The notes: generated by a model not told the origin, from the letters alone. Positions 937 through 36,828 are shown, numbered from the stretch's first letter. The stretch: DNA of 43,278 bases from Candidatus Limnocylindrales bacterium (GCA_035688935.1 DASSMI010000035.1:1-43278); one strand, 5' to 3'. Numbers and translations are program-made.

Positions 937-969
937 GAGCGGATCGTAGCGCGGTCGTCGTCGCGCGCT

Positions 970-1797: not shown

Positions 1798-1851
1798 CGC
1801 GGTCAGGCTACTGCAGGGCCCATCCCCCGCACATGACGTCCGTGGGACGGC

Positions 1852-3207: not shown

Positions 3208-3260
3208 GGCACGGCTCCGGACGGTGATGTGGAGCGCCTGGGCGGACGCCTGGGAGCGGC

Positions 3261-3300
3261 CGGTACGACGGATGCCCGCGGTCGCGGCGGCATCGTACCG
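3261..3300 (-). terminator. Imperfect GC-rich hairpin in the 136-nt tadG-mgtE spacer (possible U-tract-less terminator or 5'-leader structure)
   Basis: CGGTACGA(cgga)TGCC - 12-nt loop - GGCA TCGTACCG, giving 8 + 4 bp with a 4-nt bulge. There is no T-run on either strand. Function is not established. Confidence 0.25.
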
Positions 3301-3343
3301 CCCGCCGGATCGCGACGCCCCGCCCGTCGACGGCGCGCGCGGC

Positions 3344-5277: not shown

Positions 5278-5278
5278 C

Positions 5279-5901: not shown

Positions 5902-6405
5902 TCAGCGGCCCTCGTCGACGGGCGTCGATCGGCCTCGGGCCGCGTCCGTCTCGGTCATCGAGACATCGAGCCAGCCCTTCGCGCCGACGAGCGTCACGCC
6001 GAGCCCGGCGATCAGGAGCCACGGCCCGAGCGTGAGGCCGAGGGCCACCCCGCCGAGGCCGATCGCGATCGCGACCGGGGTCCAGCCCGGCGCCGGCAGG
6101 GGCTCGACATCCCGGACGGCCGCGCGGGCGTCGATCTGCGCCGTCGTCGCGGTCGGCGTTCGCGGGGCGTGCCGTCCCCGGCGTGACCCGAGGACGATCG
6201 CGATCGTCGCGACCGCGGACGCGATCCCGAACGCCTCCAGCATCACCGACCCCGCGGCCTCGTACGTGAGGAACCAGTAGCCGGCGCCGACCAGGATCCC
6301 GAACGCGGCCATCCGGCCGAACACCTGGGCCTCGTAGGGCACGCCCAGGCCTCGCCGGCCGCCCGTCTCGGCGGTGTCGCTGCGCTCGTGCGGCGCCTCG
6401 GTCAC
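5902..6405 (-). CDS. Putative cytochrome c oxidase subunit IV (actinobacterial CtaF-like small membrane subunit)
   Basis: Last 167 codons of track ORF 5902..7986. GTG 6405-6403 overlaps the ctaD stop (GTGA). There are four predicted hydrophobic helices ([68 protein letters not shown]). Position and architecture resemble CtaF, but sequence similarity was not verified. Confidence 0.55.
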
Positions 6406-8048: not shown

Positions 8049-8830
8049 GGCGCGGCGCTCGACGCCGCGGAGCTCGACGGGGCGGAGCTCGCCGCGGCCG
8101 AGCCCTTCGGCTGGCTCGCGACCCACGCGTCGAACTCGGCCCGGGAAACGGCCCGCACGCTCAGCAGCATCCGGTCGTGGAACACGCCGCAGAACTCCGC
8201 GCACTGGCCGCGATACGTGGCGGCTTCGCGGATCGTGACGTCGAACGCGTTGACCTGGCCGGGGATCGCGTCGCGCTTGAACAGGAACTGCGGCACGTAG
8301 AAGGAGTGGGCCACGTCGGCGGAGGTCAGGACGATGTGGATCGGCTCGCCGACCGGCACGACCATCTCGGCCGGCGTGTCCGGGCCACCCTCGACGGTCA
8401 CGCCGAGCTCGGGGTAGACGAAGCGCCACTGCCAGCGGTACGCGGTGACCTCGACGGTGACGCCGCCGGCGCCGCGCGCGTCGATCCGTCCGAGCGCCCC
8501 GAGCGTCAGCCAGAACAGGACCGCGACGATCGCGATCGGGATGAGCGTCCAGGCGATCTCCAGTCGCGTGGAGCCGTGGAGCTGCGGCGGCTGCGGGGCG
8601 GCGCCGTCGGGGCCCGCCACGGCGGACCGGCGACCGTATCGGACGATCGACACGGTGATCAGGAGCCAGACCGCTCCGCCGACCACCGCGGCGGCGATGA
8701 GGAACTGCGCCCACAGGTCGCGAACCGCGACGGCCTGGTCCGTCACGGGCGCGGGCATGCACCCGGCCGCGGCGAGGCCGAGGGCTGCGGTGGTCGCGAC
8801 GAGACCGGTTCGACGGCCGTGACGGATCAC
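8045..8830 (-). CDS. ctaC: Cytochrome c oxidase subunit II (CuA), lipoprotein-type signal
   Basis: 261 aa from [24 protein letters not shown] (lipobox LAAAGC). There are two TM helices. CuA ligands are HSFYVP...[15 protein letters not shown] 8830-8828 overlaps the qcrB stop (GTGA). Confidence 0.92.
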
Positions 8831-10212
8831 GGGCGTCCGCCGTCGGAGCTCGCGTCGAGCGCCTGGAGCGGCGTCCGGTCGCGGATCTCGCGCGCCGCCC
8901 GGTCGCGGCAGAGCCGGTACGTCAGGAGCCCGGCAAGGACCGGCACGACGACGACGAGGATCCGGGTCGCGGACGTCAGCTCCTCGAGTCCGACGTGGAG
9001 GAACACCGCGAGGACGTCGTTCCCGCCGGAGACCGTGAGGATGATCAGCATCACGAGCACGCCCACGCCGATCGCGGTCCGGACCGGCGCCTGCCACGGG
9101 TACTGCAGGAGCTGGTGCTCGCGGTCGTCGCGGCTGAACCGCGCCTCGACGAAGGGCCACAGCGCGAAGCCGGTGAAGACGATCCCCGGCAGGACGATCG
9201 CGGGCAGCACGAGGCTGGGCACCGTGATGCCGAGGATCGTGGGCTCCCAGTTGGGCCCCATCCGCAGGGCGCCCTCGAGCCAGCCCAGGTACCAGTCGGG
9301 CTGCGCCGGCGAGCTGACGAGGTACGGCTCGTACGGTCCGTAGACCCAGACGGGGTTGATCTGGACGAGACCGCCGAGGACCGCGAGGACCGCCGCGGTC
9401 AGGAAGAACAGCCCCAGCGAGCGGAACACCTGTCCGGGCCAGAAGTGCCGCCCGACGACGTTCGTCTCGAGCGCCTCGGTGCCTTCGGTGCGGCCCGGGT
9501 ACTGGGTGTGCTTCTGGAACCACAGGATCAGGAGGTGGGTCGAGACCGCGCCGATGATCAGGGCCTGGATCAGGAAGATGTGGAAGACGTACAGCCGTCC
9601 GATCACCTCGACCGGCGGGAACTCACCGCCGAAGATCAGGTAGGCGAGCCACGGTCCGACGAACGGGATCGCCGACGCGACCGAGGCCGTGATCCGGAGG
9701 CCCGTCCCGGACAGGAGGTCGTCCGGCAGCGAGTAGCCGGTGAGGCCCGCGGCGAGCGCGAGGATCAGCAGTCCCACGCCCACGAGCCAGTTGATCTCGC
9801 GCGGCCGACGGAAGGCGCCCGTGAAGAAGATCCGGCAGGCATGCACGACGATCGCCGCGACGAACACCACCGCGGCCCAGTGGTGGATCTGGCGCATGAG
9901 CAGCCCGGCCCGGACCTCGAGCGACAGCCGCATGACCGAATCGAACGCCGCCGAGACCTCGGCGCCGGCGAGCGGCCGGTACGGCCCGTCGTAGGTCACC
10001 GGCCGGGTGTCGGCGGCGAAGAAGAACGTCAGGAACACCCCGGTCAGGACGAGGACGACGTAGCAGAACAGCGCGATCTCGCCGAGCAGGAACGACCAGT
10101 GGTCGGGGAAGACCTTGCGCAGGACCGTCCGCGCGACCCGGGCGAACCCGGTCCGCTCGTCGAGCCAGCCCACGAGGCGATCGAGCTCGGTCGGGCGCTC
10201 GGCCGCGGTCAC
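8827..10212 (-). CDS. qcrB: Cytochrome bc1 complex cytochrome b subunit
   Basis: 461 aa from [22 protein letters not shown]... Cytochrome b features are present: [53 protein letters not shown] 10212-10210 overlaps the qcrA stop (GTGA). Confidence 0.93.
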
Positions 10213-11081
10213 GGGGCGCTCCCGGGCGCGACCGTGCGATCGCCCTGGTGGATGTTCCAGATCGACGGGCCGACGGCCTCGGGGAAGTCGTCGATCGCGG
10301 TGAACGTCCCGTCGGCCTCGAGCCGGATCGGGAGCTGGGGGAGGGGACGGGCGGCCGGGCCGAACACGGGGACCGCCCCGGTCAGCACGTCGAACGTCGA
10401 CTGGTGGCACGGACAGATGAGCTTCCGCTCGGACGCCCGGTACAGCCCCACCGGACAGCCGGCGTGGGTGCAGATCTTCGAGTAGACGACGTAGCCGTTC
10501 GGCGCCCATGCCGCCCGCGACGGGTCCAGCCTGAGGAGCTCGGGCGGGACGCGGATGAGCAGCGCCTGGCTGTCCGCCGAGCCGACCGCGCCGTCCGGGA
10601 AGACCGTCACGAGGCTGTCCACGGCCAGATCGTCGGCGTGGACCGGCTGCCCGGTGAGGCCGACGAGCCGGCGCCCGGGTCGCCACGAGGTGCTGAACTG
10701 TTCCGCGCCGGGCGCCGGTCCGAGGGACAGGACCGGGATCGCCAGCGCCGCGCCGAGCCCCGCGAAGGCGGCGACCAGCATCCCGACGAGGAGCTTCCGG
10801 CGGCTGAACCCCGCCTCCTCGGTCAGGGCCGCCTGGAAGTCGGCCGTCTCGGCGGCCGTCGACGTCGCCGGATGACGTTCCTCGACGACGATCGGCGTGT
10901 TCATCAGCTCCTGGGCCCACAGGACGATCCCGATCCCGAGGCTGCCCAAGGCGATGCCGAGGACGATGCCCTCGATCTGGGGCTGGCCGCCGAGGACGTA
11001 GACCGCGAGCAGCACGAGGCCGGCGAGGGCCGTGACGCCGAACAGCCCCGCGACGACCCACTCGGTCCGGGAGCGCGTCAT
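10209..11081 (-). CDS. qcrA: Cytochrome bc1 complex Rieske iron-sulfur subunit (three N-terminal TM helices)
   Basis: 290-aa ORF. Rieske boxes CTHAGCPVGLY and CPCHQSTFD are present. The N-terminal triple-TM anchor is typical of actinobacterial QcrA. Confidence 0.93.
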   Translation of the reverse strand: MTRSRTEWVVAGLFGVTALAGLVLLAVYVLGGQPQIEGIVLGIALGSLGIGIVLWAQELMNTPIVVEERHPATSTAAETADFQAALTEEAGFSRRKLLVGMLVAAFAGLGAALAIPVLSLGPAPGAEQFSTSWRPGRRLVGLTGQPVHADDLAVDSLVTVFPDGAVGSADSQALLIRVPPELLRLDPSRAAWAPNGYVVYSKICTHAGCPVGLYRASERKLICPCHQSTFDVLTGAVPVFGPAARPLPQLPIRLEADGTFTAIDDFPEAVGPSIWNIHQGDRTVAPGSAP

Positions 11082-23436: not shown

Positions 23437-23976
23437 TCAGGTCCGAAGCCGAGCCACGGCGTCGCGAACGGCGTTGACCATCCGCGGGACGGCCCGGGCC
23501 ACGGAAGGGCTGAGGCCCGCGCCGAGCGTGAAGCGGACGCCGCCCACGGCGATGATCCGGCCCTCGAGCGGGCGACCGCGGATCATGTCGGCGACGCCGA
23601 TCACCTCGCGGAACTCGAGGGCATGCGACGACCTGGGCCGGAGCCGGTCCTCGCGTCCGATCATCCCGGTGAGCGGCAGCTCGACGATGTGGCCGCCGCG
23701 CACGCCCGTCGCGGCGTCGACGACGATCACCGCGCCGCCCGGCGGGACGTCGAGCAGGTGATCGACCTCGAGCTGACCGACGACGCGGATCCGGGCACCG
23801 GCCGGCAGCGACCGCTCCAATGCCTCCGCGACGACCAGCCCGACCGCATCGTCGCCGCGGTCCGGCGATCCGCAGGCGAAGATCTCCACCCCGATCGGTC
23901 GTGCTCCGGCGAGACCTTGCCCGGACCGGGAACGGGTGACGTGGGGATCGACGGGGGCACGGGCGACGGGCGTCAT
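23437..23976 (-). CDS. Hydrogenase maturation endopeptidase (HybD/HyaD/FrhD-like)
   Basis: 179 aa from MTPVARAP... Motifs are CGSPDRGDDAVG, AVIVVDAA and SSHALEF. ATG 23976 shares one nt with the large-subunit stop. A later start is possible. Confidence 0.8.
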   Translation of the reverse strand: MTPVARAPVDPHVTRSRSGQGLAGARPIGVEIFACGSPDRGDDAVGLVVAEALERSLPAGARIRVVGQLEVDHLLDVPPGGAVIVVDAATGVRGGHIVELPLTGMIGREDRLRPRSSHALEFREVIGVADMIRGRPLEGRIIAVGGVRFTLGAGLSPSVARAVPRMVNAVRDAVARLRT

Positions 23977-25349
23977 CAGGACACCTCCTCCAGCGTGAGA
24001 TCGAGGAAGTGGGTGGCACAGCTGATGCACGGGTCGTAGCTGCGGATCAGCTGCTCGAGCCGGAGAACCGCCTCGGCGCGCGGCAGGCCGAGCACGGATG
24101 GAGCGAACGCGGCCAGGTCGGCTTCGATCGCCGCCTGGTTCTGGCTCGTGGGCGGCACGATCCGCGCGCTCGCGACGAGTCCTCGGTCGTCGAGCTCGTA
24201 GGCGTGGAAGATCAGGCCGCGTGGCGCCTCCGTCGCCCAGGCTGCGGTCGCCGGGCCGGCGGACCACGGCACGCGGGCGTCCGCGGCGGGTGCCCAGGTC
24301 TCGACGAGGTCGATCGCCTCGGCCACGGCGTCGACGATCTCGATCGCCCGGGCGACGACGCTCCGATAGGGGTTGGTCGCGATCTCCGTCGCGAGGCCGG
24401 TCCGCGTCAGCGCCGCCGCGGCCAGCGGATGGAGCCGGTCGCCGGCGAGCGCCAGCCGGCTCGAGGGACCCAGCAGGTAGGCCCGGCCATCGAGGTCGCG
24501 CGCCTGGAGCGCATGGGACCACGGCACCTGGGTCTCGGCGAAGGCCGAGGTCCACGCGGTCGGCGGAATGTCGAGCCCGGCCGTCGACACGATCCGGCCC
24601 TCGTTCATGGGGTACTCGGTCGGATGCCGGAGCGCCACGAGCGGCCCGGATCGGGTGAACGCCGGCGTCGGCAGATCGGCGACGAGATCGACGGTCCGCT
24701 CGGCGATCCGGAGGGCCGTCTCGAGCGGCTCGCGGAGGGCCCGGATCTCCGATCGTCGGAACGTCCGGGAGAAGCCACCGACGCGGACCGAGACCGGATG
24801 GATCGCCCGGCCACCGATGACCTCGACGATCCGGTTGCCCGTCTTCTTCAGCGCGAGCCCGGCTTCCACGGCGTCGCGCCGGTCGCGGGCGAGCTCGAGG
24901 GCGCTCGGGTAGCCCAGGAAGTCGGGGAGGTGCAGCAGGTAGACGTGGAGCGCGTGGCTCTCGATCCACTCGCCGCAGTACAGCAGACGTCGGAGGGCGC
25001 GGACGGCGGGATCGATCGTGATCCCGAGCCCCGCCTCGAAGGCGTGGACCGCGGTCACCTGGTAGGCGACCGGGCAGATGCCGCAGATCCTCGCGACGAT
25101 GTCGACCACCTCGTCGGGCCGGCGTCCGACCACGAGCTGCTCGAAGTACCGAGGCGCCTCGAAGATCTGGAGGTGGGCCTCTTCGACCTGTCCGTCACGA
25201 ACGCGCAGACGGAGGGATCCCTCGCCCTCGACCCGCGTCAGTCCCGCCACGTCGACCGTCAGGTCGCCGGGCGCCGAGCCGCCGAGCCCGGAGCCGCCGA
25301 GCCCCGAGCCGCCGAGCCCCGAGCCGCCGGTTCCGTCGAGGTCATGCAT
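23976..25349 (-). CDS. [NiFe]-hydrogenase large (alpha) subunit, group 3 (3b-like)
   Basis: 457 aa from MHDLDG... The N-terminal Ni-Fe ligands are RICGICPVAY and the C-terminal ligands are DPCISCATH. A 10-aa tail (FLDLTLEEVS) follows, suitable for endopeptidase cleavage. ATG 25349 overlaps the small-subunit stop by 8 nt (ATGCATGA). Confidence 0.93.
   Translation of the reverse strand: MHDLDGTGGSGLGGSGLGGSGLGGSAPGDLTVDVAGLTRVEGEGSLRLRVRDGQVEEAHLQIFEAPRYFEQLVVGRRPDEVVDIVARICGICPVAYQVTAVHAFEAGLGITIDPAVRALRRLLYCGEWIESHALHVYLLHLPDFLGYPSALELARDRRDAVEAGLALKKTGNRIVEVIGGRAIHPVSVRVGGFSRTFRRSEIRALREPLETALRIAERTVDLVADLPTPAFTRSGPLVALRHPTEYPMNEGRIVSTAGLDIPPTAWTSAFAETQVPWSHALQARDLDGRAYLLGPSSRLALAGDRLHPLAAAALTRTGLATEIATNPYRSVVARAIEIVDAVAEAIDLVETWAPAADARVPWSAGPATAAWATEAPRGLIFHAYELDDRGLVASARIVPPTSQNQAAIEADLAAFAPSVLGLPRAEAVLRLEQLIRSYDPCISCATHFLDLTLEEVS
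25275..25328 (-). repeat. 15-nt tandem repeat (about 3.6 copies) encoding (GGSGL)n at the N-terminus of the hydrogenase large subunit
   Basis: The minus strand reads ggcggctcggggctc twice, then ggcggctccgggctc, then ggcggctcg. This translates to GGSGLGGSGLGGSGLGGS (residues 8-25). Confidence 0.9.
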
Positions 25350-26202
25350 CGGTCGAGCCCTCGCCCGCCACCGGCGCGCCCGGAGGACCGCCGTAGGTGT
25401 CGATCGCCGCCCGGAACGGTGCCGACCAGGCCGTGAACCCGGCGAACAGTCGGGCGACGTCGGCCGGGGAGCCGCGCTCGAACCAGGCCGCGAGCGACGC
25501 GGCATTCGCCGATTCGCGCGGGCCGAAGCAGCCGTAGCAGCCGCGGCCGTACGCCGGACAGATCGCGCCGCAGCCCGTCCGCGTCACCGGGCCGAGACAC
25601 GGGATGGACCCGGCCACCGTGACGCAGACGACGCCGCGCCGCTTGCACTCGAGGCAGACGGCCTCGTCGGGCAGCTGCGGGCGCCGACCGGTGAGCAGCG
25701 CGGTGAGGAGCTCCCGGAGCTGGTCCGGCGCGATGGGGCAGCCACGCAGCTCGCCATCGACGGCCACGAAGTCGGAGACGGGCCGCGCCTGCGCCAGCGA
25801 CTCGATGAACGCCGGCCGCGGGTAGACCGCGGCCCGGATCTCGTCGTGGTCGCGCCAGTTCCGGAGCGCCTGGATCCCGCCCGCGGTCGCGCACGCCCCG
25901 ATCGTGATCAGGCGGTGGGAGACGGCGCGCAGACGGAGGAGCTCCTCGACCTGGTCCGGCGTGCTGACCGACCCTTCGACGAGCAGGACGTCGAACGGAC
26001 CGGCCGATCGACGCGACGTCGCCTCGGCGAACTCGACGATGTCGACCCGATCGGCGATCGCGAGCAGCTCGTCCTCCAGATCGAGGAGCGTCAGCTGGCA
26101 GCCGTCGCACGACGCGAGCTTCACGACGCCGATCCGCGGCCTCGTGGGCACCGCGGATCGCGGACGCGGGGTTCGGACGACGGTCGCGGACGCCGTCATC
26201 AC
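25342..26202 (-). CDS. [NiFe]-hydrogenase small (delta) subunit, group 3 type, no Tat signal
   Basis: 286-aa ORF. Motifs are KLASCDGCQLTLLD, GACATAGGIQ, CLECKRRGVVC and GCGAICPAYGRGCYGC. The start is GTG 26202 or ATG 26199 (GTGATG), and either overlaps the stop of the upstream gene. Confidence 0.9.
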   Translation of the reverse strand: MMTASATVVRTPRPRSAVPTRPRIGVVKLASCDGCQLTLLDLEDELLAIADRVDIVEFAEATSRRSAGPFDVLLVEGSVSTPDQVEELLRLRAVSHRLITIGACATAGGIQALRNWRDHDEIRAAVYPRPAFIESLAQARPVSDFVAVDGELRGCPIAPDQLRELLTALLTGRRPQLPDEAVCLECKRRGVVCVTVAGSIPCLGPVTRTGCGAICPAYGRGCYGCFGPRESANAASLAAWFERGSPADVARLFAGFTAWSAPFRAAIDTYGGPPGAPVAGEGSTDA

Positions 26203-28175
26203 AACCCCTCCACCATGAACGCGTCGCCCAGCTCGGCCAGGGAGAAGACCGGCCCGTCACGACAGACGAAGAAGGGACCGAGCTGGCAGTGGCCACACGT
26301 GCCGACCCCGCAGGCCATGTTCCTCTCGAGGGTCACCCACGTCCGATCCCGCGCGACGCCCAGGCGCTCCAGCGCGGCGGCCGTCGCTCGCATCATCCGC
26401 TCCGGGCCGCAGACGAACGCCGTCACCCGGCTGCCGTCCCACGCCGCCTGATCGAAGAGCTGGGTGACCACGCCGATCCGCCCGAGCCAGTCGCCGCCGG
26501 CGCGATCCACGATCTCGGCGATCTCCAGGTCGGCCCGACCGCCGAGCGCCGACAGCTCGTCGACGAAGAGCCGGTCGGCGGGGCTCCGCGCTCCCAGGTA
26601 CAGCCGCACGGCGCCGAACCGCGGTCGCTCGGCGAGGATCGAATCGAGGACCGGCCGGAGCGGCGCGAGACCGATCCCGCCCGCGACGATCACGACGTCG
26701 CGACCGCGCGCGGTCGAGATCGGCCAGCCGCGGCCGAGCGGGCCCCGGACGGCGACCTCGGTGCCGAGCGGGAGGTCGATCAGGCGAGCCGTCGCGGGGC
26801 CCGCCGCGCGGATCGTGAGCTCGAGGCCGTCGGGCCGGATCCGCGAGATGGAGATGGGCGGAGCCGCGAAGGCCGGCTGCTCGACGAGGACGAACTGGCC
26901 GGGCGCCGCGGCGAGGATCGCCGGGTCGGTGATCGCGAGGCCGATCGTCGCCGTGTCCGCCGTTTCGCGCGCGAACGAGCGGATCCGGGCGATCGCTCGC
27001 ACCGGGGGCGGCGTGGTCCCGATCTCGGGCGCCCGCCCCGACCCGGGCGACGCGGGCCACGGCGGTGGTCCGCTGGGCAGCCCGATCGGGGCGACCGCCG
27101 CGAGCTCCTCCCGCACGTCGATCGCGACCGGGCACCACGCGATGCAGCGCCCGCATCCCACGCAGCCGCTCATCCCGAACTGGTCCCACCAGGTCGCGAA
27201 CTTGTGCGTCATCCATTGCCGGTAGCGGTCGGCGACCGCGGGCCGGAAGCTCGCGTCGCCGGCGACGCGGGCGAATCCCGAGCTGAAGCAGCTGTCCCAC
27301 CGCCGCTCGGTCGTTCCCTCGATCCCGTCGAGGTCCGAGGCCACCGCCACGCTCGTGCAGAAGCAGGTTGGGCAGACGAGCGTGCAGTTGGCGCAGGCGA
27401 GGCAGCGGTCCGCGATCGCCGCCCAGCGCGGCGAGTCGAGGGCGTTCCGGAGCCGGTCGGGCAGGCCCTCGGCCGCGACCGGATCACCGATCGCCTCACG
27501 GACGGCGCGGACCTGGGCGGCCGCCGCAGCCGTCTCGGCCTCGGTCGCCGGACGAAGGTCCAGCGCCTCGACGATCGAGGCACCGGCCGCGCTGCCCGAC
27601 CGGACGAGGAACCCACCGGCGATCTCGGCCATCGCGATGTCGGCGCCGTCGCTGACCTCCGGACCGGCCTCCATCGACGTGCAGAAGCAGGTGTCCGTGG
27701 CCCGCGCGCATTCGACCGCGACGATCAGGCTCGCGGCGCGGCGGGCGACGTGGTCGGCATCGCCCAACGGTCCCGCCCGCATGACGCGCTCCTGGATCCG
27801 CAGCGCCGCGATCTCGCAGGCACGGACGCCGACGAACGCGAGGCGGGGCGGGGACCCGGCGGCCGCTTCGACGCGAAGCGAGTCGTCCTCGCGCCGGAAC
27901 CGCGCCCCCGGCACGGCCGGTGGGTGGGTGAACCGCTTCCAGGCGGTCACGCCGAGGCCATAGTCGAATGCCCGCGCCGGATCGCCATCACCGAGTCGAA
28001 CGCGGCCGGGCGCGGATTCGACCACGCGGCCCCACGGCAGATCCGCCGCTCCGTCGAGCTCCTCGTAGACGATCGCACCGTCACCAACGGTCGGGCCGAT
28101 GATCCGTCGCCCGTCTGCGGCGAGCGCGTCGAAGAGCGTGTCGAGCTCCGCGACGGGCAGGAAGCGATCGGTCAT
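26199..28175 (-). CDS. Fused hydrogenase beta-gamma subunit (AsrA-like 4Fe-4S domain + AsrB/FNR-like FAD/NAD(P)/2Fe-2S domain)
   Basis: 658 aa from MTDRFLPVAELD... The N-terminal half has CLACANCTLVCPTCFC and CVGCGRCIAWCP. A Pro-rich linker follows (GLPSGPPPWPASPGSGRAPEIGTTPPP). The C-terminal half has PPISISR, VIVAGGIGLAPL and CGVGTCGHCQLGPFFVCRDGPVF. ATG 28175 overlaps the stop of the cNMP gene (ATGA). Confidence 0.88.
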   Translation of the reverse strand: MTDRFLPVAELDTLFDALAADGRRIIGPTVGDGAIVYEELDGAADLPWGRVVESAPGRVRLGDGDPARAFDYGLGVTAWKRFTHPPAVPGARFRREDDSLRVEAAAGSPPRLAFVGVRACEIAALRIQERVMRAGPLGDADHVARRAASLIVAVECARATDTCFCTSMEAGPEVSDGADIAMAEIAGGFLVRSGSAAGASIVEALDLRPATEAETAAAAAQVRAVREAIGDPVAAEGLPDRLRNALDSPRWAAIADRCLACANCTLVCPTCFCTSVAVASDLDGIEGTTERRWDSCFSSGFARVAGDASFRPAVADRYRQWMTHKFATWWDQFGMSGCVGCGRCIAWCPVAIDVREELAAVAPIGLPSGPPPWPASPGSGRAPEIGTTPPPVRAIARIRSFARETADTATIGLAITDPAILAAAPGQFVLVEQPAFAAPPISISRIRPDGLELTIRAAGPATARLIDLPLGTEVAVRGPLGRGWPISTARGRDVVIVAGGIGLAPLRPVLDSILAERPRFGAVRLYLGARSPADRLFVDELSALGGRADLEIAEIVDRAGGDWLGRIGVVTQLFDQAAWDGSRVTAFVCGPERMMRATAAALERLGVARDRTWVTLERNMACGVGTCGHCQLGPFFVCRDGPVFSLAELGDAFMVEGL

Positions 28176-28651
28176 CGGCGGGACTCCGCTCCGCTGCCGT
28201 ACAGGTCGAGGAGCTGGAGGCGCGTCGTGGCGAGTCGCCGCGCGACGCAGGCCAGCAGCTGGCGATAGACCGCCGCGGCGAGCTCGGGGTCGGCTTCGAG
28301 CGCCGCGCACAGGCCGAACGCCTCGAACAGGATCGCCCGGCATGGGGTGGCGGCGACGCACGTGGAGCTGGCGGGCGTCCCGGGAAGGGCTGCCGACCAA
28401 CCGAAGACGTCGCCGCGATCGATCGTCAGGATCGTCCTGGGGTGGCTCGGCGGGATGCCCAGTCGCAGCGCGACTCGGCCGTCGAGGACGATTCCCATCG
28501 CCTCGCACGGCTGCCCCTCGCGGATCACGACGGTCCCTTCCCGGAGCTGGACGACGGTGCCGACCGCCGCCAGCCGGGCGCGAGCGGTGACGGGGAGGTT
28601 CGCGCCGAACCAGGTCTCGCCGAGCAGCGACGTCAGCGTCGAGGTCTCCAT
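28172..28651 (-). CDS. Stand-alone cyclic-nucleotide-binding (CAP effector-type) domain protein, no HTH
   Basis: 159 aa from METSTLTSLLGETWFG... The beta-roll pattern is VQLREGTVVIREGQPCEAMGIVLDGRVAL...ILTIDRGDVFGWSAAL...ATTRLQLLDLY. It is the first gene of the hydrogenase string. Confidence 0.8.
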   Translation of the reverse strand: METSTLTSLLGETWFGANLPVTARARLAAVGTVVQLREGTVVIREGQPCEAMGIVLDGRVALRLGIPPSHPRTILTIDRGDVFGWSAALPGTPASSTCVAATPCRAILFEAFGLCAALEADPELAAAVYRQLLACVARRLATTRLQLLDLYGSGAESRR

Positions 28652-28759: not shown

Positions 28760-30736
28760 ATGTCGAGCCACCGCCCCACCGACATCCCGCCATTCCCCGG
28801 GCTGCCGTCGATCGTCGACGGGTCCGAGGCGATCGCGTCCGTCGAGACGCGGATCTCGGAGGTCGCCTGCGCGTACCCGATCACGCCCTCCACGACGATG
28901 GCCGCGGTGTTCCAGGCGGCCGTCGCGGATGGTCGAACGAACCTGTGGGGGACGCCCCTGAGATTCGTCGAGCTCGAATCCGAGCATTCGTCGGCGTCGT
29001 CGGCGGAGGGCGTCGCACTCTCCGGCGGGCGCGTCACGAACTTCACCGCCGGCCAGGGCCTCGTCCTGATGAAGGAAGTCCTGTTCGTCATCTCCGGCAA
29101 GCGGCTGCCGGCGGTCTTCCATGTCGGCGCTCGCGCGATGACGAGCCAGGCGCTGAACATCCACGCGGGCCACGACGACGTCATGGCCGTCGCCGACACC
29201 GGATGGGGGATGCTCTTCGCGCGGAACGCCCAGGAGGCGGCCGACCTCACGGCGATCGCGCGCCGGACGGCCGAGGCGACGGAGGTGCCGTTCCTCGTCA
29301 TCCAGGACGGCTTCCTCACGACCCACACCCTCGAATCGATGCGCCTTCCCGAGGACGAGCTGCTGCGCGCGTTCGTCGGCGATCCGCGCGAGCGGATCCG
29401 GGCCTGGTTCGACACCGACGCGCCGCTGATGACCGGCGTCGTCCAGAACCAGGACAGCTACATGAAGGGGCGCATCGGCCAGCGCGCCTTCTACGACCGG
29501 CTACCGGCCGAGCTCGGCGAGTCGTTCGCGGAGTGGTCGCGGCTGACCGGCCGGCGCTACGGCGGTGTCGACGCCTACCGGACGGACGACGCATCCGAGA
29601 TCGTCGTGGCCATGGGCACGATCGCCGACACCGCCGTCGGCGTGGTCGACCACCTGCGGGCCGCCGGGCGGCCCGTCGGGTGCGTCGCGGTCACGAGCTT
29701 CCGGCCGTTCCCGACGGAGGACGTGTGGCGCGCCGTTCGGGCGGCCCGCGCGGTCGCCGTGATCGAGCGGACGGACGAGCCGGCGGCCGCCGACAACCCG
29801 CTGACCCGCGAGGTGAAGGCCGCCTGCTACGACCACGCGGCGGAAGGCGTCCTCGCGCCGCGCATCCGGTCGGTGTCGGCCGGGCTCGGCTCGCGTGATG
29901 TCGCCGCCGGCGATGTCCTGGCCGTCTTCGACTGGCTTGCCGACCATCACTCTGCGGCCGATCGCCGCCACGCCGTGGTCGGGATCCGCCATCCGCTCGC
30001 GCTCGAGTCGCGTCCGCTCGACCTCCGTCCGGCGAGCGCGTTCAGCCTCCGCGGCCACTCGATCGGCGGGTTCGGCTCGGTGACGACGAACAAGCTGGTC
30101 GCGTCCGTCGTCGGCGGGCTGTTCGGCCTCGAGGTCCAGGCGTATCCGCGCTACGGATCCGAGAAGAAGGGCCTGCCCACCACCTACTACCTCACCGTTG
30201 CGGCCGAGCGGATCCGCCAGCACGGCGAGCTGGATCACGTCGACTTCGTGGCACTCCATGACGTCGCGGCGTTCCGTCAGGGCGACCCGCTCCGCGGCCT
30301 CGTCGACGGCGGGACGGTCTTCGTCGCATCGGCCGAGACCGAGCCGGAGTCGATCTGGCGATCGATCCCGAGCGACGCGCGAGGCGAGATCCTCCGCCGC
30401 GGCATCCGGTTGGCGGCTCTCGACCCGGCCGAGCTGGCACGGACGCGGGCCCCGCGCCCGGACCTCGTCGCGCGGATGCAGGGCGTCGCGCTCCTCGGCG
30501 TGTTCCTCCGGCTGACCCCGTTCGCCGGGCGCGCCGGCCTCGACCGCGACGAGCTGCTGGCGGCCGTCCGGCCGCACCTCGAGCGCTTCTTCGGCAAGCG
30601 CGGCCGGCGCGTCGTCGACGCGAACCTCGACCTCGTCCGAGCCGCCTGGGACGAGGTCGTCGACGTCAGCGCCGCCATCTCGGCCCTCGTTCCTGCTCCG
30701 GCACACCAGCTGATCGTCGTGGAGGCAGCCCGATGA
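28760..30736 (+). CDS. Pyruvate:ferredoxin/flavodoxin oxidoreductase, N-terminal part (NifJ-type domains I-III, alpha+gamma equivalent)
   Basis: 658 aa from MSSHRPTDIPPFPGLPSIVDGSEAIASVE... Motifs are ACAYPITPSTTMAAVF and ELESEHSSASSAEGVALSGGRVTNFTAGQGL. The gamma-like part has SLRGHSIGGFGSVTTNKL...YGSEKKGLPTTYYL. Confidence 0.9.
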   Translation: MSSHRPTDIPPFPGLPSIVDGSEAIASVETRISEVACAYPITPSTTMAAVFQAAVADGRTNLWGTPLRFVELESEHSSASSAEGVALSGGRVTNFTAGQGLVLMKEVLFVISGKRLPAVFHVGARAMTSQALNIHAGHDDVMAVADTGWGMLFARNAQEAADLTAIARRTAEATEVPFLVIQDGFLTTHTLESMRLPEDELLRAFVGDPRERIRAWFDTDAPLMTGVVQNQDSYMKGRIGQRAFYDRLPAELGESFAEWSRLTGRRYGGVDAYRTDDASEIVVAMGTIADTAVGVVDHLRAAGRPVGCVAVTSFRPFPTEDVWRAVRAARAVAVIERTDEPAAADNPLTREVKAACYDHAAEGVLAPRIRSVSAGLGSRDVAAGDVLAVFDWLADHHSAADRRHAVVGIRHPLALESRPLDLRPASAFSLRGHSIGGFGSVTTNKLVASVVGGLFGLEVQAYPRYGSEKKGLPTTYYLTVAAERIRQHGELDHVDFVALHDVAAFRQGDPLRGLVDGGTVFVASAETEPESIWRSIPSDARGEILRRGIRLAALDPAELARTRAPRPDLVARMQGVALLGVFLRLTPFAGRAGLDRDELLAAVRPHLERFFGKRGRRVVDANLDLVRAAWDEVVDVSAAISALVPAPAHQLIVVEAAR

Positions 30737-31152
30737 ACGCCGTCCTCGAACCGCGGACCGTGGGGGAGCTGATGACCCGCGATCCGATCCTCGCCCACCT
30801 GGACATGGCCCTGTCCGATGCCGCCGACCTCATGGACTTCTACCGGGTGACGGGGCTCCCGGTCGTCGACTCGAGCGGCGCGCTGTGCGGGGTCATCAGC
30901 CAGACCGACCTCCTCCATGCCCGGACCACCGAGGCGCTCTGGGCCGCCTGGCCGGGACTCGCCGTGCGCCATCTCATGACGTCTCCGGCGGTCACCGTGA
31001 CGGCCGGTACGTCGGTCGACGAAGCGGCGGCGTTGATGGAGCGTCTCCGGATCCATCGGGTGGTCGTCACCGACATCTCGGGCGAGGTCACGATCGGCAT
31101 CCTCGCCGTCGCGGATCTCGTCCGGGCGATGGCCGAGCGAGGCCCGGCGTGA
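30733..31152 (+). CDS. Stand-alone CBS-pair protein
   Basis: 139-aa ORF with two CBS motifs (VGELMTRDPILAHLDMALSDAADLM...GLPVVDSSGALCGVISQTDLL and VRHLMTSPAVTVTAGTSVDEAAALM...HRVVVTDISGEVTIGILAVADLV). ATGA overlaps the upstream gene and GTGA overlaps the downstream gene. Confidence 0.88.
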   Translation: MNAVLEPRTVGELMTRDPILAHLDMALSDAADLMDFYRVTGLPVVDSSGALCGVISQTDLLHARTTEALWAAWPGLAVRHLMTSPAVTVTAGTSVDEAAALMERLRIHRVVVTDISGEVTIGILAVADLVRAMAERGPA

Positions 31153-32834
31153 CCGAGCTCGGGCGGCACGACCTGGCGGCCCCGATCCTGAAGGAGCCGG
31201 GCGAGCCCAAGGAGATCCACGAGACGCGGTTCGCGCCGGCCTCGACCGTCCTCGACGTCCATGCCTACGTCGACGACTTCAACAGCTCGATCGTCGACGC
31301 CTATCGACGCGGCGTGGCCGATCGCGACCTGCCGGCCGACAGCGGCGTCGCCAGGAGCGTCGTCCCGCCGGGCACGGCGGCGATCCGCGACTTCAGCGGC
31401 CTCGCGCCGCGCATCCCGGAGCTCGTCCTCGACGCGTGCGTCGGCTGCATGTCGTGTGTCAACGCCTGTCCCGACAGCGCGATCCTCGGGATCGCCCAGC
31501 CGGCGTCCGTCCTCGATCCGGCGATCGACGCATTCGCCTCGGCCGAGTCCGACCCGGCCCGCGCGACGGCGGCCGGCCGGTCCCACTTCACGAGGACGAC
31601 GAAGTACGCCGACGTGCCCGCGAAGCGCGGCCTCGAGCCCGCCCAGTTCGGGATCTTCGTGGACCCGGTCCATTGCAAGGGCTGCGCCGAGTGCGTCGAG
31701 GTCTGTCACGCGCTCGGCTACGACGCGCTCCGGATGATCGACAAGCAGCCGCTCGAGCCGAGCGGGGAGGGGACCGTGGAGCGGTACCTCCGCGACATGC
31801 GGCTCTTCCGATCGCTCCCGCCCACGCCGCCGGAGTACCGCAACGAGAAGGCGCTCGCGGACCTGATGCTCGGCGAGCACGCGTTCGGCTACACGGGTGG
31901 CGCCGGCTCGTGCTCCGGCTGCGGCGAGGCCACGGCGATCCGGATGCTCGTCGCCGCGACTCGCGGGACGAGCGGCCCGGATTCGATGGCGATCGTCGCC
32001 GCGACGGGCTGCAACACCGTGTTCGGGAGCACGTATCCGTTCAATCCCTACCTCGTCCCGTGGACGAACTCGCTGTTCGAGAACGCGCCCGCCGTGGCGC
32101 TCGGGATCCGGACGCGCTGGGAGCAGGCCGGCCATCCCGAGCGGCGCCTGTGGGTGCTCGGCGGCGACGGCGCGATGTACGACATCGGCTTCCAGTCGCT
32201 GTCGCGCCTCGTCGCGTCCGGGGCCGACGTCAAGGTCCTGGTCCTCGACACGCAGGTCTACTCGAACACGGGCGGGCAGGCGTCCACGGCGTCGTTCGGC
32301 GGCCAGGTGACGAAGCTGTCGGCCTACGGTCACGACCTCCACGGCCGGCCCGAGCCGCGCAAGGAGCTGGGCCGCATCCTCGTCGCCCACGGCAATGCCT
32401 ACGTCGCCCAGACGACGCCGGCCCATGTCAACCACTTCTACCGCTCGATCCTGGAGGCGAACGCCTACCCGGGTCCGGCCGTCGTGATCGCCTACTCCGC
32501 CTGCATGCCCGAGCACGGGATCGCCGACGACGCCGCGACCCGCGAGGCGAAGCTGGCCGTGGACACCCGGGCATTCCCGCTCTTCACGTACGACCCGCGC
32601 CGGGGCGACACGATCGCCGAGCGGCTGTCTCTCCAGGGCAACCCGGCCCTCCGCGCCGACTGGGCCGCCGAGCCCGACGGGACAACGATCGACTTCCTCG
32701 CATTCGCCCGCGCCGAGGGCCGGTTCGCGCCGCACTTCGGCGCCGACGGGACGCCTTCGGCCGAGATCCTCGCCACACGGGACGACCGGCTGGCGAACTG
32801 GCGGACCCTCCAGGAGCTGGCTGGGCTGCGCTGA
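31149..32834 (+). CDS. Pyruvate:ferredoxin/flavodoxin oxidoreductase, C-terminal part (2x[4Fe-4S] ferredoxin domain + TPP-binding domain, delta+beta equivalent)
   Basis: 561 aa from GTG 31149. Motifs are CVGCMSCVNACPDSAI, CKGCAECVEVCHALGY, GAGSCSGCGEAT and the TPP motif GGDGAMYDIGFQSLSRLVASGADVKVLVLDTQVYSNTGGQ. Confidence 0.9.
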   Translation: MTELGRHDLAAPILKEPGEPKEIHETRFAPASTVLDVHAYVDDFNSSIVDAYRRGVADRDLPADSGVARSVVPPGTAAIRDFSGLAPRIPELVLDACVGCMSCVNACPDSAILGIAQPASVLDPAIDAFASAESDPARATAAGRSHFTRTTKYADVPAKRGLEPAQFGIFVDPVHCKGCAECVEVCHALGYDALRMIDKQPLEPSGEGTVERYLRDMRLFRSLPPTPPEYRNEKALADLMLGEHAFGYTGGAGSCSGCGEATAIRMLVAATRGTSGPDSMAIVAATGCNTVFGSTYPFNPYLVPWTNSLFENAPAVALGIRTRWEQAGHPERRLWVLGGDGAMYDIGFQSLSRLVASGADVKVLVLDTQVYSNTGGQASTASFGGQVTKLSAYGHDLHGRPEPRKELGRILVAHGNAYVAQTTPAHVNHFYRSILEANAYPGPAVVIAYSACMPEHGIADDAATREAKLAVDTRAFPLFTYDPRRGDTIAERLSLQGNPALRADWAAEPDGTTIDFLAFARAEGRFAPHFGADGTPSAEILATRDDRLANWRTLQELAGLR

Positions 32835-32972: not shown

Positions 32973-33284
32973 ATGGATCTTGCCATCAGCATCGGGATCG
33001 GAGGCTGGATCCTGCTCATCGCGGCCGCGCTGATCGTCGGCGTCGCCATGCAGTTCCTCGGACGGGGCTCGACCTACGGCTTCGCGATCGACGCGTTCGC
33101 CGTCGCGCTCGGGGCCCTCTTCGCCAGCGAGATCGTGGTTGCCTGGCGAACAGTCGAGCCGGTCTGGGATGGCCTGGCGCTCGTTCCGGCAGTGCTCGGC
33201 GGCCTTGCCGTCGGCGCCGTCGTGGACCTGCTGACCCGCTATCTGATCGGTGGGCAATCGGCCGGGCGGCCGATGTCGGCGTGA
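32973..33284 (+). CDS. Small membrane protein, GlsB/YeaQ/YmgE (transglycosylase-associated) family-like
   Basis: 103 aa from ATG 32973, with AAAGGAGG 7 nt upstream: MDLAISIGIGGWILLIAAALIVGVAMQFLGRG... It has 3-4 Gly-rich TM helices. Confidence 0.6.
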   Translation: MDLAISIGIGGWILLIAAALIVGVAMQFLGRGSTYGFAIDAFAVALGALFASEIVVAWRTVEPVWDGLALVPAVLGGLAVGAVVDLLTRYLIGGQSAGRPMSA

Positions 33285-33363: not shown

Positions 33364-33897
33364 ATGAGAGCAGTCGTCGTCTTCGAATCGATCTGGGGCA
33401 ACACCGCGGCCATCGCCGAGGCGATCGCCGAAGGGCTCGGCGGGGACGCCCGGGCGCTTCCGACGGACGAGGCGACCCGCGAGGTGGTCGGCGCGGCCGA
33501 TCTCGTGGTCGCCGGCGCACCGGTCATGGCCTTCCGCCTGCCGACCGACGGCATGCGAAGCCGGCTCCTCGCGGGCCACGATGACGCCCCGCGTCCGGCG
33601 GACACCTCCCACCCATCGATGCGCTCGTGGCTGGAGAACGTGCCGGTCAGCCAGGCCTGGATGGCGGCATTCGAGACGCGCCTGCATTGGTCGCCGGGTG
33701 GCTCGACCGGCACGATCGAGCGGATCCTGGGACGGGCCGGGTTCCGGCGGGTCGGCCGCGCCGCCAAGTTCTTCGTGACCGGGACGTACGGCCCGCTCAA
33801 GGACGGCGAGCTCGAGCGGGCTCGCGCGTGGGGTCGCGAGCTGGCCGCTGCCGCCGGGGTCGGCGCCCGAGGGCGCGAGGTCGCCGCGGCCCGCTAG
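33364..33897 (+). CDS. Flavodoxin-like fold protein
   Basis: 177 aa from MRAVVVFESIWGNTAAIAEAIAEGL... The phosphate-loop-like SxWGNT is followed by ADLVVAGAPV. GGAGGAGG lies upstream of ATG 33364. Confidence 0.72.
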   Translation: MRAVVVFESIWGNTAAIAEAIAEGLGGDARALPTDEATREVVGAADLVVAGAPVMAFRLPTDGMRSRLLAGHDDAPRPADTSHPSMRSWLENVPVSQAWMAAFETRLHWSPGGSTGTIERILGRAGFRRVGRAAKFFVTGTYGPLKDGELERARAWGRELAAAAGVGARGREVAAAR

Positions 33898-34554: not shown

Positions 34555-35826
34555 GTGAAGGTCGTCACGGCCGCGGAAGCGGTCGCCGGCATCGGGTCCG
34601 GCCAGCGTGTGTACCTGCAATGTGCCGCCGCGACGCCCGAGGTGCTCCTCGATGCGCTGGTCGCGCGGGCGCCCGAGCTCCGGGACGTGGAGGTGGTCCA
34701 TCTCCACATCGAGGGTCCCGGTCCGCACCTCGCACCGGAGATGGCGGGCCACTTCCGGCATCGCGCGCTGTTCATCGGTCCGAACGCGCGCCAGGCCGTC
34801 AACGAGGGTCGCGCCGACTTCGTGCCCATCTTCCTGTCCGACGTGCCGCGGCTGTTCGACTCGGGCGCCCTGCCGCTGGATGCGGTCTTCGTGAACGTGA
34901 CGCCGCCCGACGAGCATGGCTTCTGCTCGCTCGGGACGTCGGTCGAGGCGATGCACGCGGCGATCCGGTCGGCGCGAACCGTGATCGCCCAGCTGAACCG
35001 GGCGATGCCGCGGACGCTCGGTGACAGCTTCATCCACGTCTCCCAGATCGATCTCGGCGTCGAGGTCGACCAGCCGCCGTACGAGCACGAGATCGGACCG
35101 ATCGGACCCGTGGAGCGCCGGATCGGCGAGCATGTGGCCGCGCTCGTCCCCGACGGGGCGACGATCCAGCTCGGGATCGGCGGGATCCCGGCGGCCACCG
35201 CGCTGTTCCTCCGTGACAAGCGTGATCTCGGCATCCATACCGAGATGTTCACGGACAGCGTCGTCGACCTCGTGGAGGCGGGCGCCGTCACCGGCGCCCG
35301 GAAGGATCGCAACCGCGGCAAGATCGTCACCGCGTTCGTCCTCGGCAGCCGCCGCCTCTACCGCTTCATCCACGACAACCCGATGATCGAGATGCGGCCG
35401 GTCGACTTCACGAACGACACCCACGTGATCCGGTCCTTCTCGAGGATGCGGGCGATCAACTCGGCGATCGAGGTCGACCTGACCGGCCAGGTGGTGGCCG
35501 ACTCGATCGGTCATCGGATGTACAGCGGCGTGGGCGGCCAGATGGACTTCGTCCGTGGTGCCGCGCTCGCCGAGGACGGCCGGGCGATCATCGCCCTCCC
35601 CAGCACGGCAGGCGACGGCGGGATCAGCCGGATCGTGCCCGCGCTCCGTGAGGGCGCCGGCGTGGTCACGACCCGCGCGCACGTGCGCACGGTGGTCACC
35701 GAATGGGGCGTCGCGGAGCTCTTCGGACGGAGCCTCCGCGAACGGGCGAAGGCCCTGATCGCGATCGCCCATCCCGACCATCGCGACGCGCTCCTCGCCG
35801 CGGCCCGCAGCCTCCACGAGATCTAG
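34555..35826 (+). CDS. Acetyl-CoA hydrolase/transferase family enzyme (4-hydroxybutyrate / succinate:acetate CoA-transferase-like)
   Basis: 423-aa ORF with a GTG start. Motifs are AAEAVAGIGSGQRVYLQCAAATPEVLLDAL, FIGPNARQAVNEGRADFVPIFLSDVP, GIGGIPAA, EMFTD and SGVGGQMDFVRGA. Confidence 0.9.
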   Translation: MKVVTAAEAVAGIGSGQRVYLQCAAATPEVLLDALVARAPELRDVEVVHLHIEGPGPHLAPEMAGHFRHRALFIGPNARQAVNEGRADFVPIFLSDVPRLFDSGALPLDAVFVNVTPPDEHGFCSLGTSVEAMHAAIRSARTVIAQLNRAMPRTLGDSFIHVSQIDLGVEVDQPPYEHEIGPIGPVERRIGEHVAALVPDGATIQLGIGGIPAATALFLRDKRDLGIHTEMFTDSVVDLVEAGAVTGARKDRNRGKIVTAFVLGSRRLYRFIHDNPMIEMRPVDFTNDTHVIRSFSRMRAINSAIEVDLTGQVVADSIGHRMYSGVGGQMDFVRGAALAEDGRAIIALPSTAGDGGISRIVPALREGAGVVTTRAHVRTVVTEWGVAELFGRSLRERAKALIAIAHPDHRDALLAAARSLHEI

Positions 35827-36111: not shown

Positions 36112-36120
36112 GGTGATCCG

Positions 36121-36828
36121 ATGCTCACGATCCGTGACGTGATGACCGAATCGGTCATCACCGTCGAACCGGCGACGCCGCTGAAGGACGTCGCCCAGCT
36201 CCTCGTCGACCGGAGGATCAGCGGGCTCCCGGTCGTGGATGCCGAGGGCTCGGTCCTCGGCATCGTCTCCGAGGCCGACCTCCTGCTCAAGGAGCAGGGT
36301 GCCGAGTCGGTCGGGCGGCGGCGCTTCGCCTGGCTGCTCGGCGACGACGCGGCCACTCGCTCGCGGCGCGCGAAGCTGGCCGCGACGACGGCCGGCGCGG
36401 CGATGACCGCTCCGGCCGTCACCGTCAGCCCCGCCACCGCGCTGGCGGCTGCCGCGGAGCTGATGACGACGTACGGCGTCAATCGCCTGCCGGTCGTCGA
36501 GGACGGCCGACTCGTGGGCATCGTCACGCGCGCAGACCTCGTCCGTGCGTTCGTGCGGTCCGACGAGGAGCTCACCGCCACGATCCGCGACGAGATCCTG
36601 CGGCGGGTCCTGTGGCTCGATCCGGCCGCCTTCCGCATCGACGTGCACGACGGCGTCGTGACGATCCGCGGACACGCCGAGCGCCGCTCCACATCGCTCG
36701 CGGTGGAGGCGGCCATCGCGATGGTCCCCGGCGTGGTCGGCGTGGACGCCGAGATCCCGTACTCACTCGACGATCGGACCCTCGAGCCCGCCTCCCTCGA
36801 CCCGGTGTTCCCGTTCGGACCGCGCTGA
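36121..36828 (+). CDS. CBS-pair + BON domain protein
   Basis: 235-aa ORF with two CBS motifs (IRDVMTESVITVEP...GLPVVDAEGSVLGIVSEADLL and AGAAMTAPAVTVSP...RLPVVEDGRLVGIVTRADLV). A BON-like segment follows: RIDVHDGVVTIRGHAERRSTSLAVEAAIAMVPGVVGVDAEI. Confidence 0.88.
   Translation: MLTIRDVMTESVITVEPATPLKDVAQLLVDRRISGLPVVDAEGSVLGIVSEADLLLKEQGAESVGRRRFAWLLGDDAATRSRRAKLAATTAGAAMTAPAVTVSPATALAAAAELMTTYGVNRLPVVEDGRLVGIVTRADLVRAFVRSDEELTATIRDEILRRVLWLDPAAFRIDVHDGVVTIRGHAERRSTSLAVEAAIAMVPGVVGVDAEIPYSLDDRTLEPASLDPVFPFGPR

Follow-up and report, generated by a model that had tools for sequence, protein, structure and literature searches.

A CBS-pair module at the break of a two-gene pyruvate:ferredoxin oxidoreductase found across many phyla

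Through pyruvate:ferredoxin oxidoreductase (PFOR), glycolysis is connected to electron carriers of low potential, to the production of hydrogen and to CO2 fixation. To our knowledge, no 2-oxoacid:ferredoxin oxidoreductase (OFOR) carries a dedicated small-molecule sensor domain, and none appears in the searchable literature either; likewise, we know of no CBS subunit in the four-subunit PorABCD enzymes. The known domain sets of PFOR, as summarised in a recent paper, consist of domains I, II, III and VI plus domains V and IV, which vary; no sensor domain is among them (PMC8091585). Here we describe a locus on a stretch of 43,278 nucleotides from Candidatus Limnocylindrales bacterium (GCA_035688935.1, DASSMI010000035.1:1-43278), hereafter the window, with a G+C content of about 72%. 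At positions 28760-32834 of its plus strand, PFOR is encoded in two genes, an alpha-gamma half and a delta-beta half, with a gene for a stand-alone CBS pair (Bateman module) between them. The split enzyme belongs to a large family that extends over at least ten phyla, and on balance we consider it probable that the CBS pair is an accessory module attached to the enzyme in this family.

A first-pass annotation, made from the sequence of the window, knew of no described OFOR with a CBS subunit, and neither the literature nor the PDB yielded one. Full-text literature searches returned no description of an OFOR or PFOR with a CBS module, or of this split, and a search for a solved OFOR with a CBS chain found no PDB entry shared between those matched by the CBS protein and those matched by either PFOR half. 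Multi-chain PDB entries with CBS proteins (9e6q, 9zni and others) were considered as OFOR complexes and rejected, as they are archaeal ribosome hibernation factors.

The first-pass annotation had also read the region as open reading frames (ORFs) of 658, 139 and 561 amino acids, with the two PFOR halves totalling 1219, joined by stop/start overlaps of the sequences ATGA and GTGA. ORF calls and our own reading of the sequence agree with these sizes, and both overlaps proved exact at the junctions (Table 1). The motifs on which it had relied, YPITPST, ELESEHSS, GFGSVTTNK, YGSEKKG and GGDG...N, were all found in the proteins, and its division into PFOR domains I-III, a CBS pair, and ferredoxin plus thiamine pyrophosphate (TPP) domains was confirmed by Pfam. 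Shine-Dalgarno-like GGAGG and GAGG sequences precede the internal starts by 6-7 nucleotides, all three ORFs show a third-position GC of 0.86-0.87 in their coding frames, and the GTG start of the delta-beta gene is backed by homology from residue 1 in one related locus (L005; loci are cited by our own numbers). A further ATGA overlap joins the gene for a cyclic-nucleotide-binding protein to the first hydrogenase gene (28172-28175, minus strand); overlaps of this kind are therefore common in the genome, and their presence alone does not set the PFOR trio apart.

The two halves together retain the catalytic apparatus of a PFOR. Pfam assigned POR_N (7e-58), PFOR_II (2e-17) and POR (1e-25) to the alpha-gamma half, and 4Fe-4S dicluster (Fer4) families together with TPP_enzyme_C (9e-14) to the delta-beta half. 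When aligned to the single-chain PFOR of D. africanus (1B0P), the alpha-gamma half covers residues 7-608 (E 5e-83) and the delta-beta half residues 633-1134, so that the chain break falls at the boundary between domains III and IV; in the same alignment, the C-terminal domain VII of the D. africanus enzyme has no counterpart in the delta-beta half. T42, R125, L132 and I134 of the alpha-gamma half align with T31, R114, L121 and I123 of D. africanus PFOR, and N996 has its counterpart in the Asn of the delta-beta segment YSNTGGQ; we take T31, R114, N996 and the hydrophobic L121 and I123 to be the pyruvate contacts in the D. africanus structures. The segments CSGCGE, ATGC and SAC of the delta-beta half align to C812, C815, E817, C840 and C1071, which preserves the four Cys of the proximal cluster, and the Glu of CSGCGE, equivalent to E817, is the TPP-activating residue. 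The GDG...N motif for Mg and TPP is present as GGDGAMYDIG...DTQVYSNTGGQ, aligned to the GDG region of 1B0P, and CVGCMSCVNACP and CKGCAECVEVCH align to the two CxxCxxCxxxC motifs of domain V. In total, all 12 Cys ligands of the three [4Fe-4S] clusters are kept with respect to 1B0P. Since the cofactor and pyruvate-contact residues are all retained, the genes are not a pseudogene; to judge from these residues, the product looks like a working PFOR-like OFOR, its substrate is probably pyruvate, and its place is in the PFOR branch of the OFOR superfamily. Of the NCBIfam models, TIGR02176 for single-chain PFOR fitted both halves best, with scores of 374 and 207 bits that lie far below its cut-off of 911 bits, and TIGR03710 and the archaeal OFOR models gave weak matches. 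The enzyme fits no curated architecture, be it the single-chain NifJ, the four-subunit PorABCD or the two-subunit Sulfolobus type.

To survey the family, 15 alpha-gamma homologues were aligned and one genome per GTDB species was then scanned, which returned 80 loci; in these, the three proteins were located by combining tblastn with an ORF check and a profile of the CBS pair. The two-gene split occurs in Chloroflexota, Acidobacteriota, Planctomycetota, Verrucomicrobiota, Binatia, Rokubacteria, Methylomirabilis, Latescibacterota, Tectomicrobia and Poseidoniales archaea, and the split is not special to the window but shared by a large family that spans many phyla. The presence of CBS could be assessed in 78 of the 80 loci (34 from close and 44 from distant relatives), while two could not be judged. 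Of the 80 species-level genomes, 43 have a CBS pair at the junction: 30 of the 34 close relatives, which are metagenome-assembled genomes from Limnocylindria, Limnocylindrales or Chloroflexia at 66-77% identity, and 13 of the 44 distant ones, other phyla included. In 35 of these 43 loci the pair is a separate ORF (a count that includes a partial remnant, L057, and a messy assembly, L039), in one it stands at a contig end (L041), in one it is frameshifted (L042), in five it is fused to alpha-gamma and in one to delta-beta. Among the 35 loci that lack it, 29 are split, one has unrelated genes between the halves (L063), and five Acidobacteriota (L060, L066, L070, L076, L082) encode a single alpha-gamma-delta-beta chain of about 1165 amino acids. 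The PFOR family therefore displays every state: single chain, split, split with CBS, alpha-gamma-CBS fusion and CBS-delta-beta fusion.

Loci looked up by way of the CBS protein agreed with this survey. The 139-amino-acid protein has more than 2000 homologues, the best 120 of which are 66-100% identical to it and nearly all 139 amino acids long, and five of six homologue loci that were looked up hold the intact triplet (L001, L085-L088). Because the same gene order recurs in these five loci and in 43 of the 80 surveyed genomes, it is not a chance feature of one sequence. The first-pass annotation had asked whether the triplet is conserved in a neighbourhood search, and had counted absence or variability of the CBS ORF in orthologous loci against its own proposal: the triplet is conserved among close relatives but far less so among distant ones, and the ORF is variable, since most distant relatives and four of the 34 close ones lack it, although the other 30 have kept it.

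These data also bear on whether the trio could be an artefact or a decaying gene, namely a single-chain PFOR broken by a frameshift, with a spurious ORF in between. Single-chain versions do exist in Acidobacteriota and frameshifts do occur in a few loci (L039, L042), but more than 70 loci of many phyla have both halves at full length and with high conservation, and the catalytic residues are intact; the CBS ORF matches Pfam at 2e-27 and has thousands of homologues, and the codon-position GC bias given above holds in the coding frames. The comparative data thus rule out this explanation with next to no residual doubt, and the earlier description of a genuine split NifJ-type PFOR holds.

Two loci depart from the common gene order in other ways. 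In L063, unrelated small ORFs, including a lipoprotein-like one, occupy the space between the halves (8989-10404), and a 159-amino-acid ORF of this insert may be a toxin-antitoxin component, judging by eye; in L039 (7001-14624) the PFOR-CBS locus is present twice in inverted orientation with many frameshifts, which may reflect an assembly problem or a decaying duplicate. No other sensor domain was seen at the junction in L063 or L050, the loci with a gap and no CBS match, the delta-beta gene of L050 not being adjacent.

Gene fusions tie the CBS pair to the enzyme. In five genomes of Caldilineae, Anaerolineae and other Chloroflexota (L046, L056, L058, L067, L084), alpha-gamma and CBS form a single chain of 779-790 amino acids, and when such a fusion was searched against the protein database, 87 of the best 120 matches carried POR_N, PFOR_II, POR and CBS, down to 60% identity. 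The database names of these fusions are generic only ('CBS domain-containing protein', '2-oxoacid:acceptor oxidoreductase family protein'). A CBS-delta-beta single chain was found in one locus (L026), a lone case that could be a sequencing error. Such joined chains count as gene-fusion evidence for the pair being part of the enzyme. A single alpha-gamma-CBS-delta-beta chain was not seen in a CBS-protein search of 1.84 billion representatives, a search that is uninformative on fusions, and in which the close CBS family collapses to a few 50% clusters before generic CBS proteins dominate.

Position and descent point the same way. The module lies at the III/IV break in all CBS loci except L064, where a CBS-pair gene with a weaker profile score (58 bits) stands directly 5' of alpha-gamma (5119-5511) and not between the halves. 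Identity of the CBS protein to the query falls from 65% to about 30% while that of alpha-gamma falls from 77% to 55%, and the CBS tree shows the same three groups as the alpha-gamma tree, which together argue for long co-inheritance. About 30 of 36 loci with a separate ORF offer a 4-nucleotide overlap between the upstream stop and the CBS start; from CBS into delta-beta, an overlap of 4 or 8 nucleotides is available in about 20 related loci, the others being spaced by about 20 nucleotides. The dN/dS of the CBS gene is approximately 0.16. What we observed directly is the gene order and its coupling, the conservation and co-divergence, the fusions and the intactness of the active site, and with the coupling kept and the pair fused in places to either half, the first-pass annotation was right to tie the pair to the break point.

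In fold and in conserved residues, the module resembles ligand-binding CBS pairs. The 139-amino-acid protein consists of two tandem PF00571 repeats (E 2e-27). Among 41 junction CBS sequences, separate and fused, that were aligned for conservation, the best-kept positions of repeat 1 are V-V-D...G...G-x-x-S-x-T-D and those of repeat 2 are G-x-x-S-x-x-D-L, together with an invariant H-R followed by a [LV]-V-V strand; repeat 1 of the window protein reads GVISQTD. The Asp after the S/T motif presumably binds the ribose hydroxyls, as we assume for CBS pairs generally, and we take the invariant His-Arg to correspond to the phosphate-binding His-Arg of AMPK gamma. For one natural alpha-gamma-CBS fusion, an AlphaFold2 model had a mean pLDDT of 79 and a pTM of 0.75, and its CBS part (pLDDT about 80-88) is predicted to fold as a Bateman module. 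With this model, Foldseek matched residues 1 to about 660 to PFOR domains I-III (6CIN, 1B0P) and superposed the CBS part on solved stand-alone CBS pairs with TM-scores of 0.74-0.88 normalised to the target, the best of them including AcuB with AMP/ADP, CBSX2 with AMP and MJ0100 with S-adenosylmethionine (SAM) or methylthioadenosine (MTA); no PDB entry in the Foldseek search covered both the PFOR and the CBS parts. Because the cleft positions are conserved and structural matches hold AMP or ADP, an adenosine phosphate is our best guess for the ligand.

From these features we propose that the three genes would make one NifJ-type PFOR, cut at the domain III/IV boundary, with the Bateman module at the break as an accessory regulatory unit, held physically in the complex and presumably tethered or docked at the C-terminal end of domain III. 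In the most likely mechanism, the module would bind an adenosine phosphate (of the AMP/ADP/ATP type), and PFOR activity or assembly would shift with the energy state of the cell. We put forward only tentatively that the module senses adenylates and gates PFOR activity. The energy-charge gating and the fixed stoichiometry suggested by the first-pass annotation are candidate properties, for which the evidence is that the ribose- and phosphate-binding positions canonical for CBS pairs have been kept. It is likewise possible, though we would not call it probable, that this is the first OFOR with a dedicated allosteric sensor, an adenylate-binding CBS pair that would switch PFOR by energy charge from the III/IV junction. 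The docking of the non-fused form, the identity of the ligand, the direction of regulation and expression under hypoxia are what we infer here.

The same location would also suit a structural piece without a regulatory ligand, such as a dimerisation clamp or scaffold, or an oxygen shield that stands in for the absent domain VII. Dimers are common among CBS pairs, and PFOR too is dimeric; the module sits exactly at the polypeptide break, this PFOR family has no C-terminal domain VII of the D. africanus kind, and the host, which carries a gene for cytochrome oxidase, looks aerobic. However, the 29 split loci that do without any CBS, four close relatives among them, are hard to reconcile with a structural need, and the most-kept residues of the module are canonical ligand-cleft positions, with no obvious surface patch. 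We therefore regard a purely structural role as unlikely.

Several observations weigh against an enzyme-attached regulatory module. The CBS gene is dispensable, being absent from four close relatives (L007, L021, L022, L036) and 31 distant loci, the single-chain Acidobacteriota included; those four are scattered on a neighbour-joining tree, as losses would predict. In repeat 2 of the window protein (GILAVAD) the Asp is kept and the Ser/Thr is lost, with Ala where most relatives have Ser/Thr. The linker of the fusion model (residues 649-652) is of low confidence at a pTM of only 0.75, and the model says nothing firm on how CBS docks. Ligand binding is predicted from motif conservation, and hypoxic regulation is read from the neighbouring genes. 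Finally, in a lineage sampled three times within one study (L002-L004, remnant region about 6350-8780 in each, compared with 6031-10036 of L001), three separate deletions have hit the hydrogenase operon, alpha-gamma and delta-beta: the hydrogenase operon is reduced to a chimeric ORF, alpha-gamma is cut to a 55-amino-acid ORF that still ends in the ATGA overlap, and delta-beta is a frameshifted remnant of 116 amino acids. The CBS gene beside these PFOR remnants has its full 139 amino acids and all conserved motifs, and its dN/dS against intact L001 is 0.16, no higher than between intact loci. A population with the intact triplet (L088) is present in the same sample as the deleted lineage. The intact gene of this lineage means that the CBS protein may have a role outside PFOR.

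This survival would be explained if the CBS protein were an independent stress or dormancy protein, similar to Hrp1 or the archaeal hibernation factors, that shares the operon and the regulation of PFOR without binding or regulating it. In addition to the apparently constrained gene that outlived both PFOR halves and the hydrogenase, relatives carry a second, divergent CBS-only paralogue beside the operon, a further CBS-BON gene is present in the window, and a response regulator and three Usp genes lie nearby in L001 and L002. The best PDB sequence matches of the window protein are CBS-only proteins, and several of them are archaeal CBS ribosome-hibernation factors; no Hrp1 entry was recognised among 50 PDB matches at E<=1e-3. 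Against this, covalent fusion to alpha-gamma, both among the database matches and in the five genomes, and to delta-beta in one, would be difficult to account for, and a hitchhiker would not be expected to hold its exact position at the III/IV break, with a conserved stop/start overlap and co-divergence with the enzyme across phyla, over such divergence. An independent protein thus appears improbable to us, and an accessory module attached to the enzyme is the reading we retain. The CBS pair is accessory and not an obligatory third subunit, since four of the 34 close relatives and most of the distant split PFORs lack it, and one lineage keeps it after deletion of PFOR. The suggestion in the first-pass annotation of a new third subunit accordingly stands in part: the fusions and co-divergence support an extra subunit or regulatory module, but one that is variable and not required.

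The second CBS-only gene of the close relatives encodes 136-196 amino acids, is about 40% identical to the junction CBS and lies just 5' of alpha-gamma in divergent orientation. On the tree it nests within the Limnocylindria-type junction CBS group, and therefore looks like a duplicate. The window is without it, as just 108 bp separate the gene for the cyclic-nucleotide-binding protein from alpha-gamma. The window holds three CBS-containing genes, which are the junction CBS, the CBS-BON gene and MgtE (1852-3351).

The features of the locus and its surroundings are collected in Table 1. A divergent operon upstream of alpha-gamma encodes a [NiFe]-hydrogenase, preceded by a putative cyclic-nucleotide-binding protein whose window copy gave no match at E 1e-3 in the Pfam scan. 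Downstream, a small membrane protein of about 104 amino acids follows delta-beta in the window and in close relatives and persists in the PFOR-deleted lineage. In a survey of neighbouring genes, a homologue of the acetyl-CoA transferase adjoined the PFOR genes in 16 loci and was the only frequent neighbour, while a hydrogenase was adjacent in 4-5 of the surveyed loci; 'CBS_BON' matches in this survey, at about 30% identity, were discounted as cross-matches to the junction CBS. Elsewhere, the window contains genes for hemerythrin, DUF6390, MgtE, cytochrome oxidase subunit I and a Rieske protein, and relatives also have acetate kinase and phosphoketolase near the locus. The cyclase gene and kinase fragment at the window end, together with the cyclic-nucleotide-binding protein, hint at cyclic-nucleotide control of the hydrogenase/PFOR region. 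On the basis of gene content, the host appears to be aerobic and to carry a gene island for fermentation at low oxygen, in which PFOR, the NAD(P)-linked [NiFe]-hydrogenase, the flavodoxin-like protein and the acetyl-CoA transferase would form one module in a bacterium that also bears cytochrome oxidase.

Table 1. Coordinates of the PFOR trio, its junctions and surrounding genes; positions are those of the window unless a related locus is named.
Feature	Position	Strand	Details
PFOR alpha-gamma half	28760..30736	+	ATG 28760, TGA 30734-30736; 658 aa; domains I, II, III in NifJ order
Stand-alone CBS pair (Bateman module)	30733..31152	+	ATG 30733, TGA 31150-31152; 139 aa
PFOR delta-beta half	31149..32834	+	GTG 31149, stop 32832-34; 561 aa; domain IV-like N-terminus, 2x[4Fe-4S] domain V, TPP domain VI
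Alpha-gamma/CBS stop/start overlap ATGA	30733..30736	+	sequence reading; GGAGG at 30721-30725
CBS/delta-beta stop/start overlap GTGA	31149..31152	+	sequence reading; GAGG at 31139-31142
Second CBS-only gene (relatives)	L001 5397-5987; L002 7240-7680; L085 1396-1806; L086 1426-1836; L087 1393-1803; L088 1392-1802	-	
CBS-pair + BON protein	36112-36828	+	300 bp 3' of CoA-transferase gene; same architecture near locus in L002-L004
Cyclic-nucleotide-binding protein, 159 aa, first gene of hydrogenase operon, divergent from PFOR	28172..28651	-	orthologue in L087, L088 carries PF00027 cNMP_binding
[NiFe]-hydrogenase genes, sulfhydrogenase (group 3b-like) composition	23976..28175	-	Fer4_22 + NAD_binding_1 + DHODB_Fe-S_bind, Oxidored_q6, NiFeSe_Hases (Pfam)
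Hydrogenase subunits	fused Fe-S/FAD-NAD 28175-26199; small 26202-25342; large 25349-23976	-	
Small conserved membrane protein, ~104 aa, predicted to have three or four hydrophobic segments; no Pfam match	32973-33284	+	L001 10653-10967; L002 9396-9710
Flavodoxin-like protein, possible electron acceptor	33364..33897	+	Flavodoxin_1 E 9e-5, below gathering score
Acetyl-CoA hydrolase/transferase, would consume PFOR product	34555..35826	+	AcetylCoA_hyd_C 2.5e-66
GAF + HisKA sensor kinase fragment (cut by window end) and adenylate/guanylate cyclase gene	1-1851	-	

A PFOR gated by CBS, if real, would place post-translational control on an enzyme usually thought to be governed by expression and oxygen damage. 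It would also amount to an adenylate gate on fermentative acetate and H2 output at the time when oxygen runs out for soil Chloroflexota, which are abundant and otherwise aerobic, and for bacteria of several further phyla. The lineages that carry the trio, many uncultured soil bacteria among them, are common in soils and sediments and otherwise aerobic, and their survival there through anoxic spells is poorly understood. With separate CBS, fused CBS, no CBS and single-chain forms, this one enzyme family provides a natural comparison set in which these ideas are biochemically testable.

Among the described systems, the closest in sequence and fold are the single-chain homodimeric PFORs of D. africanus (1B0P) and M. 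thermoacetica (6CIN), which gave the best matches and share the domain order I-II-III-(IV)-V-VI, the TPP site, the three [4Fe-4S] clusters and the pyruvate-contact residues. The window halves are, however, only about 28-35% identical to them and fall below the TIGR02176 cut-off; moreover, the window enzyme is broken at III/IV, is without domain VII and has a CBS pair at the break, whereas no solved PFOR has CBS. In the PorABCD type (M. acetivorans 9BT4), every one of the alpha, beta, gamma and delta parts matches some segment of the window halves, but the window has alpha and gamma in one ORF and delta and beta in another, which makes two genes instead of four, and the N-terminal stretch of its delta-beta half aligns to D. 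africanus PFOR from residue 633, in the domain IV region. The two-subunit OFORs of Sulfolobus and Halobacterium also differ, as their subunit a is ordered III-I-II and lacks a ferredoxin domain, in contrast to the order I-II-III and the domain V of the window enzyme. On the side of the CBS module, CBS-only stress proteins (M. tuberculosis Hrp1/Rv2626c; archaeal Hib, Sri and AHA) are likewise small CBS-only proteins, linked to hypoxia or dormancy, but, unlike the junction CBS, they are neither tied nor fused to an OFOR gene pair. Also comparable are the CBS-regulated enzymes and partner proteins (IMPDH, CBS-pyrophosphatase, AMPK gamma, plant CBSX-thioredoxin and AcuB), in which a Bateman module of about 130 amino acids is inserted in, or supplied beside, a catalytic protein. 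The junction CBS differs from this set in its partner, an Fe-S/TPP 2-oxoacid oxidoreductase for which we know of no described regulation by CBS, and keeps the canonical ribose-Asp and basic phosphate-contact positions.

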